Shown: positions 30,018 through 35,840, counted from the first letter of the stretch. The stretch: DNA of 64,000 nucleotides from Escherichia coli (GCF_024223415.1 NZ_CP100500.1), one strand, 5' to 3'. A program made the numbers and translations. The notes: generated by a model from the letters alone, not told the origin.

Positions 30018-31229
30018 TCACCCCACTTCTGGTAACAACCCTGCCGCAATCAAAAATTGCACGCCAATCACAGCAATACCACAGAGAAACACCACCACCA
30101 GCGCCGGACGACCACCTTTCACCCGGTAACCCGCCTGAGGATTGTGCTTTCTGCTTTGCCAGGTCAACAGCGAAGGGATAATCAATGCCAGTACCGCCAG
30201 CGCCACACCGGCGTAACCCAGCGCCATCACAAATCCTCGTGGATAAAACAGTGCAAACGCCAACGGCGGCAGAAAGGTAATTGCACCAGTTTGCAACCGT
30301 CCACCAACGGTATTTGAACGCTGAAATAAATCAGCCAGATAATCAAATAAGCCTAACGCAACGCCGAGAAATGACGTGGCGAGGGCTAAATCAGCAAATA
30401 AATGCACTGCCAGCTCAACATGCGGAGAGGCCACCATTTCGCGTAACGCCTGTAACAGCCCGTTTAATCCAGCATGATTAGCCAGCAATCCCATAAAGGT
30501 TGTTGAATCAATGCTGCCAAGCGTTGCCACCTGCCAGAAAATATATGCCACCAAGGGGATCGCACTACCGGTTATAAACACCCAGCGTAGCTTACGAACG
30601 TTGCCATCCATATAGCTGACAATACTCGGCACGCTACCGTGAAAACCAAATGAGGTAAAAATCACCGGGATTGCTGACAGAGCCAGCCCCTGTTGCAACG
30701 GCAGGGTTAAAAGATTCACTTTGTGAATATGCGGTAGCAGCAATACCAGCATCACCACCAGAAAAATAATTTTGGCGCTGAACAGAAAACGGTTAAATAA
30801 ATCGACCAGCGATGTTCCAACACAAACCACGCCACCGGCAACAAAAGTGAACAACAGCACGCCAGCGGTTGCCGACATTGAAATACCTGTCCAGTCGCTG
30901 ATGCTGGAGGCCAACAATTCACCGGCACCGCTGATGTATGCCGCAGTCAGAGCATACATTAAGAACATCATACTGAAGCCCGTCAGCCATTGACCGTAGC
31001 GTCCCAGATAGCGTTTTGCCAGCGTGCCCAGACCGGTATCTGCCGGAACATGCTGGTACACCTCCAGCAGTAATAGCGCCGTGTAGCACATCAACGCCCA
31101 AAGCCCAATCAACAAGATTAACGTAACGCTAAAACCAACACCGGCCGCAGCCAGCGGCATTGCCAGCATGCCTGCGCCAATTGTGGTTCCCGCCACGATA
31201 AAAACACTTCCCAGGGTTCTGTTTTTCAC
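30018..31229 (-). CDS. tyrP: Tyrosine-specific transporter TyrP (403 aa)
   Basis: ORF track; [31 protein letters not shown]. Confidence 0.95.
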
Positions 31230-31320
31230 GCTTTCTTCTGTCCTGACGATCTTTATGAGTGATATCTGCGGCGCAGGTTAAGGCATAACGGCTGCTTCGT
31301 CAAACCGACGTTACATATGG

Positions 31321-31338
31321 TGTAAATATAAATGTACA
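31321..31338. promoter_or_regulatory. TyrR box upstream of tyrP
   Basis: TGTAAATATAAATGTACA fits TGTAAA-N6-TTTACA with one mismatch. Confidence 0.65.
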
Positions 31339-31419
31339 ATAAAAAGCATTCAGTCCTGCGCTGGCGCAAAGTCTTCATAAGCGGCAATCGCTACGCTAGG
31401 CTTTTTTTGAGGAGGGACG

Positions 31420-31659
31420 ATGGACTCTATTCACGGTCATGAAGTGTTAAATATGATGATTGAATCAGGCGAGCAATATACGCATGCCAGTCTGGAAGCT
31501 GCGATTAAAGCGCGTTTTGGTGAACAGGCACGTTTTCACACCTGCTCGGCAGAAGGGATGACAGCGGGAGAGCTGGTAGCGTTTCTGGCAGCAAAAGGCA
31601 AATTTATACCTTCGAAAGACGGTTTTTCGACCGTTCAGAGTAAGATTTGCCGTCACTGA
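31420..31659 (+). CDS. yecH: Small protein YecH (79 aa)
   Basis: ORF track; conserved position. Confidence 0.8.
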   Translation: MDSIHGHEVLNMMIESGEQYTHASLEAAIKARFGEQARFHTCSAEGMTAGELVAFLAAKGKFIPSKDGFSTVQSKICRH

Positions 31660-31666
31660 TTTGAAA

Positions 31667-31689
31667 CGGCGGCAGTAAACCTGCCGCCG
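31667..31689. terminator. Bidirectional hairpin between yecH and ftnA
   Basis: cggcggcag-taaac-ctgccgccg perfect stem. Confidence 0.6.
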
Positions 31690-31696
31690 GAGAGCA

Positions 31697-32194
31697 TTAG
31701 TTTTGTGTGTCGAGGGTAGAGAGTTCTTTGTCGATAAAATACAGACCTTCGCCGCTTTTGCCTGCCAGGCTTAATTTATCAATAATCGATTTGAACAGTT
31801 TCTCTTCTTCATGCTGCTCAGAAACATACCATTGCAGGAAATTAAATGTTGGGTAGTCCTGATTGGTCATTGCAGCATGAGCCAGTTCGTTAATTTTCTG
31901 GGTGATTAATTGTTCGTGTTTATAGGTTTCCTGGAATAATTCATCAAGTGAGGAATATTCAGCAAACGGAGATTCAACGGTATTAATACGCGGTAAATTG
32001 CCGGTATCAGTCAGGTAATCAAACAGACGCTGCATATGCGTCATCTCTTCCTGGGCGTGACGGCGCAGGAACGCGGCAGCACCTTCGAAGGTATGATAGC
32101 TGCACCAGGCGCTCATTTGCTGATAAAGCAGTGAAGAGTACAGTTCCAGGTTCATCTGCTCATTAAGTTTTTCAATCATTTCTGGTTTCAGCAT
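31697..32194 (-). CDS. ftnA: Ferritin FtnA (165 aa)
   Basis: ORF track 31697..32209; start [21 protein letters not shown]. Confidence 0.95.
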
Positions 32195-32364
32195 GATAGT
32201 GCTCCACAAAGGTTATATTTGTTGCTGTGGCGTCACTATAATTTGTTATTTTATTATTTGCAAAAGGTAAAATATAAACTTCAATTATTAAAAATACGAA
32301 TGGGAATAAAACGCATTACCGCTATTTCTTTAATCAGCGAAGATCCCCTCGCTGATTAAAATAT

Positions 32365-32688
32365 TTAGAGAAAGACAGGGAAGGCGGAATGATGGCACTG
32401 ATATGACAAAGTGAATTCCGTATTCAAACATAAGGAACCCGCAAAAAGGCTACAGTTGCCTACTGGCTGACCAAAGGGGACCGCGTGGGTATAGCCTTCC
32501 TGCTGGCATGCGCGATCGGCGATCCCGCGACTGACATAACGATCGGTATGGGCATGCTGCAAAAAAGCCTGGTCATAAACCAACCGTACAATACCTGTTG
32601 CCGCGTCAACTTCGCTCACATGGGCCTGGCGAGTAACCGTACACCCCGCCAGCGTTATTAATGAAAGAGTCAGAATCAGAAGTCTCAT
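32365..32688 (-). CDS. yecR: Lipoprotein YecR (107 aa)
   Basis: ORF track; lipobox LAGC. Confidence 0.8.
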   Translation of the reverse strand: MRLLILTLSLITLAGCTVTRQAHVSEVDAATGIVRLVYDQAFLQHAHTDRYVSRGIADRACQQEGYTHAVPFGQPVGNCSLFAGSLCLNTEFTLSYQCHHSAFPVFL

Positions 32689-32852
32689 GGTCCAGCCAGA
32701 AGAGTAAGAGAAAGCACTATTTTACGCGTTACAGCGCTGCGACAATGGCCGGAAAAGACGCCTGGCAGGCGCTATTTCTTGCCATCTGTAGGTGTCAGAA
32801 ATAGGGGGGCTGTTTTTTGATTATCATTTTTATAACATTAAAGGGGTATTTA

Positions 32853-32868
32853 TGTGATTTGCATCACA
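32853..32868. promoter_or_regulatory. CRP-like binding site upstream of azuC
   Basis: TGTGA-tttgca-TCACA palindrome read from sequence. Confidence 0.6.
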
Positions 32869-32950
32869 TAAAGATTGATTTTTGTGATGGTTGTCATATT
32901 ATAAGCGCAAAGACAATAACACCTGTATAACAAATAGTCGGAGTGCCGCG

Positions 32951-33037
32951 ATGAAACTGCGCAAAATCCTGAAAAGTATGTTCAATAACTATTGCAAGAC
33001 GTTCAAAGACGTACCGCCAGGCAATATGTTCCGATAA
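32951..33037 (+). CDS. azuC: Small protein AzuC (28 aa), encoded in the dual-function AzuCR RNA
   Basis: ATG at 32951 translates to MKLRKILKSMFNNYCKTFKDVPPGNMFR; followed by a terminator. Confidence 0.8.
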   Translation: MKLRKILKSMFNNYCKTFKDVPPGNMFR

Positions 33038-33042
33038 CAAAA

Positions 33043-33066
33043 AACCTGCTCCGGCAGGTTTTTTTG
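33043..33066 (+). terminator. Rho-independent terminator of azuC/AzuCR
   Basis: aacctgc-tccgg-caggttttttt. Confidence 0.75.
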
Positions 33067-33151
33067 TGTCCTGATGACGGTGGATGTGACTATCGCTGAA
33101 GATGTGAAGCCGCTACTATAACGGCTTTCAAAATGCTATCAGGAGTTTACG

Positions 33152-33403
33152 ATGTCCCAGCCGCTGAATGCCGATCAGGAACTGGTTTCTGATGTGGTTG
33201 CTTGCCAGTTGGTTATCAAACAAATTCTGGATGTTCTCGATGTAATCGCGCCCGTTGAAGTTCGTGAAAAAATGTCCAGTCAGCTGAAGAATATCGACTT
33301 TACTAACCATCCCGCCGCCGCAGACCCGGTCACCATGCGGGCAATCCAAAAAGCCATCGCGCTTATTGAACTCAAGTTTACCCCACAGGGTGAATCCCAT
33401 TAA
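33152..33403 (+). CDS. yecJ: YecJ, DUF2766 family (83 aa)
   Basis: ORF track. Confidence 0.8.
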
Positions 33404-33481
33404 AAAAACCGCTGCTTCAAACAGATGAGGCAGCGGTTTCTCAAAACCTTCATCGGCGCAATGCATTAGCGCCGATGATGA

Positions 33482-33985
33482 TCAATGCAGCTGGTGTGAC
33501 ACGACATTCAGAACATGTTGGTCGGTCTGCACAGGGCACATACCCGCAAGTTTCGCACTGCGCACTTCATCAAGAATGGTTTGCAGCAACAGACCATCAT
33601 GCTGCTGTTCTTTTTCCAGATCGCGCAGGAAATTGACGGTTGAATCATCATTCAGTTCTTTCGCTTCATCGGCTAACTGTGCCAACGTACTAGAACGTTG
33701 CTCGTATTCTTCCATCGTTTTTTGGAACAGTTCTTCCAGAGAGTTCAGTTTTTCACCGGGAACATCAATGGCTTTAACGATGGGGGTAGCGCCGACACTC
33801 TTCATAAAGTTAAACATGCGCATCATTTGGGTCACATTACTCTGTGCCTGGGCGCGAAGGAAAGTGGCGGTGCCGTTCAGACTCTGTTCAGAACACCAGT
33901 TACTCAGGTGAAGGTAGAGATTGGATGCGTAAAACTCGCGGTTCATTTGAGAGTTGAGTTTGAGAAGCATTCCAGCGGTTGCCAT
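33482..33985 (-). CDS. ftnB: Ferritin-like protein FtnB (167 aa)
   Basis: ORF track; ferritin fold residues. Confidence 0.9.
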
Positions 33986-34781
33986 ACCTAATATCCTTAT
34001 ATCCAGAAGTGGAGAGGTGCAAGATAAATCAAAACACCATAATTACTGTTTGCAGAATAATTCCTTTCTGCCGGTCCGAAATGTGATCGTGGAGTCAATT
34101 CTGACGATGATCTGAAATAAGAATAACGTCTGAACGGGTATAAGAAAATGCTTAAATCATCAAGTTTATATATTTTTACATTTCATTGATGAAATCAATG
34201 TAACTGCAATGAATTTTAATGATAGTGCTTTTTGTATCTTGTTGATATTAATCAATGAATTTGAATTCATGATGAAGTGATGATTTTATAAAGCGTTTTT
34301 TCATTTTTGCGAGATGGCTCTCATTATACGTGTTCTGTTAATTAATGAGCACAGTGATAATTAATGACGAAATGAATGACGTGCATTTTCCACATCTTTG
34401 AGTTGCGGTTATTACACCATTTCAAAAACTCAACGCCAGGTAATGCGGCCTATTGACTGGTTAAAAAGAAGACATCCCGCATGGGTACCAAAGACAACAA
34501 GGATTTCCAGGCTAATCTTATGGATTAATCTGCTGTGCATTCGACAATTTGTCTGACAAATTGGCTTTCCCTTATGTCTTTTCCCGCTAAATTTATGCAC
34601 GTTCTCACTGTAATTCTGCGATGTGATATTGCTCTCCTATGGAGAATTAATTTCTCGCTAAAACTATGTCAACACAGTCACTTATCTTTTAGTTAAAAGG
34701 TAATGCTTTGTTTTCCGATTAATTTAACGAATGTCATTCGTTTTTGCCCTACACAAAACGACACTAAAGCTGGAGAGAACC

Positions 34782-35771
34782 ATGCACAAATTTACTAAAG
34801 CCCTGGCAGCCATTGGTCTGGCAGCCGTTATGTCACAATCCGCTATGGCGGAGAACCTGAAGCTCGGTTTTCTGGTGAAGCAACCGGAAGAGCCGTGGTT
34901 CCAGACCGAATGGAAGTTTGCCGATAAAGCCGGGAAGGATTTAGGGTTTGAGGTTATTAAGATTGCCGTGCCGGATGGCGAAAAAACATTGAACGCGATC
35001 GACAGCCTGGCTGCCAGTGGCGCAAAAGGTTTCGTTATTTGTACTCCGGACCCCAAACTCGGCTCTGCCATCGTCGCGAAAGCGCGTGGCTACGATATGA
35101 AAGTCATTGCCGTGGATGACCAGTTTGTTAACGCCAAAGGTAAGCCAATGGATACCGTTCCGCTGGTGATGATGGCGGCGACTAAAATTGGCGAACGTCA
35201 GGGTCAGGAACTGTATAAAGAGATGCAGAAACGTGGCTGGGATGTCAAAGAAAGCGCGGTGATGGCGATTACCGCCAACGAACTGGATACGGCACGTCGC
35301 CGTACAACGGGTTCTATGGATGCGCTGAAAGCGGCCGGATTCCCGGAAAAACAAATTTATCAGGTACCTACCAAATCTAACGACATCCCGGGGGCATTTG
35401 ACGCTGCCAACTCAATGCTGGTTCAACATCCGGAAGTTAAACATTGGCTGATCGTCGGTATGAACGACAGCACCGTGCTGGGCGGCGTACGCGCGACGGA
35501 AGGTCAGGGCTTTAAAGCTGCCGATATCATCGGCATTGGCATTAACGGTGTGGATGCGGTGAGCGAACTGTCTAAAGCACAGGCAACCGGCTTCTACGGT
35601 TCCCTGCTGCCAAGCCCGGACGTACATGGCTATAAATCCAGCGAAATGCTTTACAACTGGGTAGCAAAAGACGTTGAACCGCCAAAATTTACCGAAGTTA
35701 CCGACGTGGTGCTGATCACGCGTGACAACTTTAAAGAAGAACTGGAGAAAAAAGGTTTAGGCGGTAAGTAA
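34782..35771 (+). CDS. araF: L-arabinose ABC transporter periplasmic binding protein AraF (329 aa)
   Basis: ORF track 34731..35771; start MHKFTKALAAIGLAAVMSQSAMA. Confidence 0.95.
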   Translation: MHKFTKALAAIGLAAVMSQSAMAENLKLGFLVKQPEEPWFQTEWKFADKAGKDLGFEVIKIAVPDGEKTLNAIDSLAASGAKGFVICTPDPKLGSAIVAKARGYDMKVIAVDDQFVNAKGKPMDTVPLVMMAATKIGERQGQELYKEMQKRGWDVKESAVMAITANELDTARRRTTGSMDALKAAGFPEKQIYQVPTKSNDIPGAFDAANSMLVQHPEVKHWLIVGMNDSTVLGGVRATEGQGFKAADIIGIGINGVDAVSELSKAQATGFYGSLLPSPDVHGYKSSEMLYNWVAKDVEPPKFTEVTDVVLITRDNFKEELEKKGLGGK

Positions 35772-35840
35772 TTTGCCGGAAAAATTCCCCTCTGCATGAT
35801 GCAGAGGGGGGGTGAACGACCAGTGATTCACGGAGACGTT

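Follow-up and report, generated by a model that had tools for sequence, protein, structure and literature searches.

The 796-bp region between the divergent genes ftnB and araF of Escherichia coli (positions 33986-34781 of the window, i.e., of the whole 64,000-nt stretch of DNA analyzed here) consists of two conserved control regions and ~300 bp of fast-evolving filler, and its extra length is very probably a scar left by the loss of a DJ-1/PfpI gene, which joined two known control regions. Every Escherichia locus in our comparison lacks this gene, which lies between ftnB and araF in sister genera, and this argues for reading the extra length as the product of gene loss. The region is a real but ordinary feature of the chromosome.

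Extent, composition, and partition of the ftnB-araF region

The region runs from the start codon of ftnB (coding sequence at 33482-33985, minus strand) to the ATG of araF at 34782. Its K-12 counterpart is NC_000913.3 1986129-1986924, in the opposite orientation, and the window as a whole is E. coli chromosome, with 99.9-100% identity to K-12-like strains. Of 5426 complete E. coli genomes, 5417 contain the region. It is left unannotated by both PGAP and the curated K-12 record, and no larger feature-free interval exists in the surrounding 50 kb of the curated K-12 annotation. The earlier note, written from the sequence alone, had drawn attention to an unusually long, AT-rich divergent region with A/T palindromes and without an open reading frame (ORF) of at least 60 codons, and this description proved accurate. 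The GC content is 0.349, compared with 0.498 for the whole window, and drops within 34100-34400 to a minimum of 0.26-0.30 per 200 bp, while the largest ORFs encode 56, 53, and 52 amino acids. We counted 10 perfect palindromes with 6-bp arms. Dinucleotide shuffles (n = 500) gave 1.8 ± 1.6, and 0.2% of them reached 10, although the count in the region itself is inflated by nested hits. The string that had been quoted as an example of these palindromes lies at 34242-34277.

Scanning the region with the sigma70 consensus gave no site, against 3.6 expected, and terminator-like hairpins numbered two (0.7 expected), both of them weak and one inside the araF promoter. Matches to the H-NS high-affinity motif were scattered, each with one or two mismatches. 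The idea of an array of Fur boxes was dropped, since the scan of the region found no Fur box with fewer than 7 mismatches over 19 positions.

Alignment of the window with six other Escherichia lineages divides the region into three parts. The flank on the ftnB side (33986-34189, ~205 bp) carries a CpxR-like box and the sigma70 promoter upstream of the leader, and the flank on the araFGH side (34497-34781, ~285 bp) carries, ahead of its own promoter and leader, a CRP site and two AraC dimer sites. Both flanks are ~95% identical among these lineages, whereas the middle (34190-34496, ~300 bp; K-12 1986414-1986720) is barely alignable, save for a few short islands. The islands common to the Escherichia species, TTAATTAATGA...GTGATAATTAA at 34338-34366 and TAAAAAGAAGAC at 34461, could be functional sites, judging from their sequence conservation. 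The same pattern is seen within E. coli: four strains differ at 36 sites, of which the middle accounts for 26, the ftnB flank for 1, and the araF flank for 9, all nine of them between 34504 and 34569 and none in 34570-34781. Identity of 90-95% was found for the middle segment alone in 409 of 5416 matching E. coli records, and for the whole region in only 6 records.

Mobile elements have also entered this DNA. In strain CUWW10, an IS1 element is inserted with an 8-bp duplication of 34227-34234, as mapped from its junctions, and three further strains have an equally long IS1 within the region. In strain TB354, an IS1-associated deletion truncates the 5' end of ftnB, and the remaining match begins at ~34415. 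The middle tolerates both IS1 insertion and deletion, and it is the most polymorphic part of the region within E. coli.

A DJ-1/PfpI gene separates ftnB and araF in related genera

We retrieved 38 loci encoding FtnB relatives. A full-length ORF of 185 amino acids, divergent from ftnB and codirectional with araF, lies between these two genes in 26 loci, which belong to Citrobacter, Salmonella arizonae/diarizonae, Lelliottia, Enterobacter, Huaxiibacter, Silvania, and Leclercia. The encoded protein matches the DJ-1/PfpI model PF01965 of Pfam (E value of 2.6e-29) and scores just under the NCBIfam cutoff for DJ-1 family glyoxalase III. The start codons of ftnB and araF are roughly 1100-1430 bp apart in these relatives, compared with 789-800 bp and no DJ-1 ORF in Escherichia (the window and six other loci, which span E. 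coli, E. albertii, E. whittamii, and further Escherichia spp.). No complete E. coli genome contains DNA resembling the Citrobacter DJ-1 gene, and tblastn searches with two Citrobacter DJ-1 orthologues found nothing at E values of up to 10 in the region or in any other Escherichia locus. The intergenic region between ftnB and the DJ-1 gene measures 490-560 bp in most relatives, 372-415 bp in three, and ~260 bp in two, with a GC content of 0.32-0.39, and the one between the DJ-1 gene and araF measures ~320 bp; the sum of the two is close to the 796 bp of E. coli. The gene has also been inactivated independently elsewhere, by internal deletions in each of three Citrobacter lineages and by a frameshift in Leclercia adecarboxylata NCTC13032, and it has thus been lost repeatedly.

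The borders of the missing segment can be placed with a profile of the non-Escherichia loci (1394 columns, nhmmer), which matches the E. coli region at 33990-34257 (E value of 4e-34) and at 34494-34781 (E value of 4e-69), while profile columns 269-1105 (~840) are missing from it. The envelope of the second match starts at position 488 of the region, i.e., at 34473 of the window. Just inside this border, the plus-strand stretch at 34474-34496, which begins ATCCCGCATGGG..., resembles the left arm TCCCGAAT of a hairpin located after the stop codon of the Citrobacter DJ-1 gene, and it is probably a relic of the terminator hairpin of the lost gene. What remains between the borders is a lineage-specific AT-rich spacer of ~216 bp (34258-34473), which occupies the place taken elsewhere by the DJ-1/PfpI gene and its 5' region and shows no similarity to the non-Escherichia loci by either blastn or the nhmmer profile.

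We propose the following course of events as the simplest account. The ancestor of the Enterobacteriaceae would have carried the 185-amino-acid DJ-1/PfpI gene at this position, transcribed toward araF, and the Escherichia lineage would have deleted its coding sequence. This deletion would have fused two former intergenic regions of ~510 and ~290 bp, and the gene's 5' region, left orphaned, would since have drifted under little or no constraint. As the ~216 bp retain no protein-level remnant of the gene and have no detectable similarity outside Escherichia, only position and length lead us to derive the spacer from this 5' region rather than from new DNA. H-NS coats the spacer owing to its AT-richness and, in K-12-like strains, masks in vivo the consensus FNR box located there at -137.

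Two further observations concern the relatives themselves. A conserved inverted repeat, TGAAA-N5-TTTCA (e.g., TGAAATGCTGTTTCA), occurs between ftnB and the DJ-1 gene in four loci of Citrobacter and Salmonella and is a probable operator. It lies on the DJ-1 side of the CpxR-like box, ~100 bp away from it. At a similar distance, E. coli carries another palindrome, ATGAATTTGAATTCAT (34255-34270, 7-bp arms), which is not conserved. In addition, one locus of Salmonella enterica subsp. diarizonae (L010) has no araF beside ftnB, and its positions 1635-1827, downstream of the DJ-1/PfpI gene, resemble the promoter and leader of araF (window 34549-34667 and 34738-34781). This remnant looks like a second gene-loss scar, in this case for araFGH.

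The ftnB-side flank contains a CsrA-repressed leader and its promoter

The 5' untranslated leader of ftnB occupies 33986-34113 on the minus strand. Its transcription start site (TSS) is listed at U00096.2 1984821(+) with 124 reads and a 128-nt untranslated region (Kim 2012), which corresponds to 34113 of the window, and a length of 127 nt was used in another study (Pourciau 2019), placing the start at 34112/34113. A sigma70 ChIP-seq peak labeled araF/ftnB lies at 1984820 (Myers 2013). The leader block is ~95% conserved in 7 Escherichia species and can be aligned to other genera. From the TSS and the sigma70 peak, we place the core promoter at 34114-34150 on the minus strand, within a conserved block, where the predicted -10 element is approximately TATTCT and the -35 element is weak.

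The leader contains four GGA motifs on the minus strand (TCC on the plus strand), at 33994-6, 34002-4, 34062-4, and 34075-7. The first of them sits in the Shine-Dalgarno sequence of ftnB, and the third lies in a hairpin loop of the minimum free energy fold. CsrA was shown to bind at three of the four motifs, one of which overlaps the Shine-Dalgarno sequence, and to repress ftnB translation directly (Pourciau 2019). With multiple GGA motifs, one of them in the Shine-Dalgarno sequence, the leader is, as read from its sequence, of the CsrA-repressed type.

Two RNA 3' ends map to the minus strand of the leader by term-seq (Adams 2021), at 34054 and 34011 (K-12 1986856 and 1986899), and they are the only ones listed for the ftnB-araF region. 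The supplement entries class them as orphan ends upstream of the ORF (-69 and -26 relative to ftnB), and the entry for 1986856 is flagged "No," which we take to mean that it is not Rho dependent. The end at 34054 lies 8 nt past the hairpin that carries the GGA of a CsrA site in its loop, and no U-tract is found there. This end could be a product of processing or pausing tied to CsrA binding.

Upstream of the promoter, at ~-60 from the TSS, a scan identified a CpxR-like box (GTAAAAATATATAAA, 34165-34179, minus strand) of the form GTAAA-N5-ATAAA, with one mismatch to GTAAA-N5-GTAAA. Escherichia, Salmonella, and most Citrobacter all carry this box equally far from ftnB. As listings of CpxR targets or iModulon members include ftnB, we putatively assign this box to CpxR.

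The araFGH-side flank is the known araFGH promoter

To search for AraC sites, we used a 17-bp half-site motif, TAGC-N7-TCCATA, in direct repeats 21 bp apart. Two such pairs are present in the region, while among 2000 dinucleotide shuffles one pair occurred in 2.35% and two pairs in none. The distal dimer site (34498-34535, minus strand) is made up of the half-sites TAGCCTGGAAATCCTTG and CAGCAGATTAATCCATA, 21 bp apart, and the proximal one (34573-34610, minus strand) of TAGCGGGAAAAGACATA and CAGTGAGAACGTGCATA. In all genera compared, the conserved block on the araF side starts exactly at the distal AraC site, and the proximal site is invariant in the four E. coli strains and conserved across genera. 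The distal site is presumably araFG2 and the proximal one presumably araFG1 (the nomenclature of Hendrickson et al. 1990/1992).

Between the AraC sites and the promoter lies a predicted CRP site, TGTGATATTGCTCTCC (34622-34637), which has 2 mismatches to TGTGA-N6-TCACA and is conserved in Escherichia and across genera. It is followed on the plus strand by a weak -10 region, CGCTAAAAC, and a leader of ~110 nt (34657-34781 in total). Setting the center of the CRP site (34629.5) at -41.5 and taking the promoter sequence into account, the TSS of araFGH would lie near 34670. Hendrickson, Johnson, and Schleif are said to have established the order AraC-AraC-CRP-RNA polymerase at araFGH, with half-sites inverted relative to those of araBAD, and the segment 34497-34781 is the known araFGH promoter.

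The stretch that separates the distal from the proximal AraC site contains a perfect 19-bp palindrome, CAATTTGTCTGACAAATTG (34545-34563). Its core, TTTGTC-nn-ACAA, is kept throughout Escherichia and conserved in the multigenus profile. Its 7-3-7 layout recalls the operators of FadR-subfamily GntR regulators such as PdhR and LldR. The araF side also shows a weak TSS at 34524(+), inside the distal AraC site and 258 nt upstream of araF; it is supported by 3 reads, is preceded by TAATCT, and is the only start on this side in a data set that was made without arabinose (Kim 2012). It could be a spurious promoter or a promoter that is occluded by AraC.

Evaluation of the middle segment

The strongest competitor to gene loss is the notion that the middle serves as an H-NS nucleation or silencing platform, which, together with an upstream FNR site and possibly other factors, acts at a distance on ftnB, much like the antagonism of H-NS and Fur at ftnA. 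The DNA is of the kind that H-NS binds, with a GC content of 0.25-0.35 against 0.50 (0.25-0.30 in the middle) and H-NS ChIP-chip enrichment reported at the FNR box discussed here (Myers 2013). This box, TTGATATTAATCAA (34242-34255, ~-137 from the ftnB TSS), forms the core of the palindromic string quoted in the earlier note and has no mismatch to TTGAT-N4-ATCAA, a perfect box arising in only 0.8% of shuffles. The same site is given in the supplement of Myers 2013 as TTGATTAATATCAA at 1984679 under araF/ftnB, with a position weight matrix score of 15.49. According to the summary in Troxell 2011, ftnB is induced at low oxygen, and Salmonella H-NS binds and represses ftnB, with Fur-dependent activation attributed to H-NS; the same paper, citing Partridge 2007, states that FNR bound the promoter region of E. 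coli ftnB at an unusually distant site. The few islands that the middle shares among Escherichia species would also fit with such a platform.

Against this stands the fact that no FNR ChIP-seq peak accompanies the site in wild-type cells (Myers 2013), and the other supplement tables of that study that were examined neither list ftnB nor record unmasking in hns stpA cells. The geometry also differs from that of FNR-dependent promoters, given that the box is centered at ~-137, compared with -41.5 for class II promoters or -61.5 and the like for class I promoters. Moreover, three further E. coli strains, from other phylogroups, have one or two changes in the right half of the box, and other Escherichia species keep the left half only. 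Other genera have no positionally equivalent FNR site; the homologous stretch of Citrobacter reads TTGATTTTAATGGC. A box that is lineage specific and polymorphic argues for a chance or recent site and against a conserved masked operator. No Fur box below the mismatch limit given above was found, and Troxell 2011 likewise recognized none at Salmonella ftnB. H-NS binding is a consequence of AT-richness and can arise without selection. We consider a selected platform unlikely, and gene loss followed by drift remains the preferred explanation for the middle.

A more specific version of regulatory function would be that the spacer, an H-NS nucleation patch in which K-12-like strains gained a consensus FNR box, is a recently evolved, strain-variable H-NS/FNR switch, which couples anaerobic or temperature-dependent relief of silencing to ftnB and possibly drives a long araF transcript from the weak start at 34524. 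We regard this as a long shot; if true, a promoter region orphaned by gene loss would have been exapted for regulation.

Replacement of the DJ-1 gene by foreign AT-rich DNA, through horizontal transfer or a mobile element, would explain why no homology to this place in other genera can be detected, and a middle that is AT-rich, bound by H-NS, and diverging faster than its flanks has the appearance of such DNA. However, the stretch left to explain is only ~216 bp long, has neither terminal repeats nor IS ends, belongs to a middle that is single copy in E. coli, and matches in length the ancestral 5' region of the lost gene. In addition, no phage relatives of the spacer were found, and its matches in the plasmid database were confined to 7 E. 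coli records of 0.39-4.9 Mb, which we take to be chromosomal sequence. Finally, the ancestral similarity fades gradually at both borders, including half of the FNR box on one side and the terminator arm on the other. Foreign origin is thus highly improbable, compared with descent from the lost gene's own 5' region.

The earlier note had raised the possibility of unannotated small RNAs or proteins, and no support for such genes in the surplus DNA came from Rfam, RNA folding, ORF conservation, or tables of TSSs and 3' ends. It is true that the region holds several ORFs of 23-56 codons, that a 26-codon ORF at 34376-34456 (+) is intact in four E. coli strains, and that the 3-read TSS lies upstream of araF. 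However, in other E. coli strains or in the Escherichia lineage closest to E. coli, the small ORFs of the middle are disrupted by stop codons, frameshifts, or lost start codons. Most of their substitutions are nonsynonymous, and the pattern expected of an ORF maintained under purifying selection is not seen. A search of 31000-36000 against Rfam at E values of up to 1 gave nothing within the region, the predicted folding of the middle is no better than that of shuffled sequences on either strand (z-scores of 0.13 and 0.11), and the sequence of the middle is not conserved, being unalignable among Escherichia species. The tables of Kim 2012 and Adams 2021, which cover few conditions, without arabinose and with H-NS present, list no TSS and no 3' end in 34190-34496. 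The small-ORF table of Stringer 2021 has no entry at the coordinates of the region, a table in which azuC was likewise not found. For the region as a whole, the TSS and 3'-end tables show only the strong ftnB TSS, the 3-read TSS, and the two 3' ends in the ftnB leader. With an IS1 insertion tolerated at 34227-34234 and a curated K-12 annotation that is blank here and otherwise rich in small RNAs and small proteins over the same 50 kb, we give hidden genes hardly any credence.

Two observations from the annotation searches are worth recording. In some assemblies (NZ_CP032667.1 and NZ_CP020516.1), the numbering of the PGAP locus tags jumps over one tag between ftnB and araF (RS09310 to RS09320 and RS15800 to RS15810), whereas it is continuous in others; the skipped tag may correspond to a call in the spacer that was later withdrawn. 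Outside the region, a subthreshold Rfam match to the enterobacterial small RNA STnc370 (33.4 bits against a gathering score of 54, E value of 0.08) lies at 33033-33097 on the minus strand, just downstream of azuC/AzuR and between azuC and yecJ.

Discussion

The functional elements of both flanks, as well as the H-NS-masked FNR site, have already been described. The one new point made here is comparative, namely, that the unusual length of the ftnB-araF region most probably reflects the loss of DJ-1/PfpI in the Escherichia ancestor. Such a loss would explain how a long AT-rich, H-NS-bound, and IS1-prone stretch came to lie between two well-behaved promoters. The importance of this finding beyond a tidy annotation is small; it does carry the caution that length and AT-richness alone are no sign of hidden genes or regulatory arrays.

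This bears on the suggestion of the earlier note that the region is larger than two promoters need and may therefore hold extended regulator-binding arrays. The first half of the suggestion is borne out insofar as the region contains leaders of more than 100 nt, two AraC sites, a CRP site, a CpxR-like box, CsrA sites, an FNR box, and H-NS binding. The second half fails for the ~300 bp of surplus, which is unconserved between Escherichia species, while the recognizable elements fill the conserved flanks. Of the ChIP evidence that the note had recommended consulting, the data on nucleoid proteins flag H-NS enrichment at the FNR box (Myers 2013).

Both flanks compare closely with known systems. 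The araF side has the same AraC pairs, and the same CRP site abutting the promoter, as the araFGH system that Hendrickson, Schleif, and colleagues reportedly characterized between 1990 and 2000, and we noted no differences. On the ftnB side, the leader has the same 127/128 nt and four GGA motifs as the known CsrA-repressed ftnB leader, and its TSS coincides with the sigma70 peak. The box at ~-60 is placed provisionally in the CpxR regulon from its sequence and conservation alone.

The middle invites comparison with two systems involving H-NS. The box at 34242-34255 is literally among the "silent" FNR sites listed by Myers 2013 as occluded by H-NS; unlike a conserved site of this type, the one at ftnB/araF is lineage specific and polymorphic. 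A second ferritin-family gene, ftnA, likewise has an AT-rich, H-NS-bound region upstream. There, Nandal and colleagues reportedly described in 2010 an antagonism between H-NS and Fur, whereas the upstream region of ftnB has no recognizable Fur boxes.

As a whole, the region resembles the gene-loss scars and decayed pseudogenes of enterobacteria, where a gene present in sister genera is likewise absent and the flanking regulatory DNA is kept. It differs from decayed pseudogenes in that Escherichia retains no residual coding similarity, only the neighboring noncoding DNA, and for this reason it should not be annotated as a DJ-1/PfpI pseudogene. The partial deletions of the DJ-1 gene in Citrobacter represent earlier stages of the same process.
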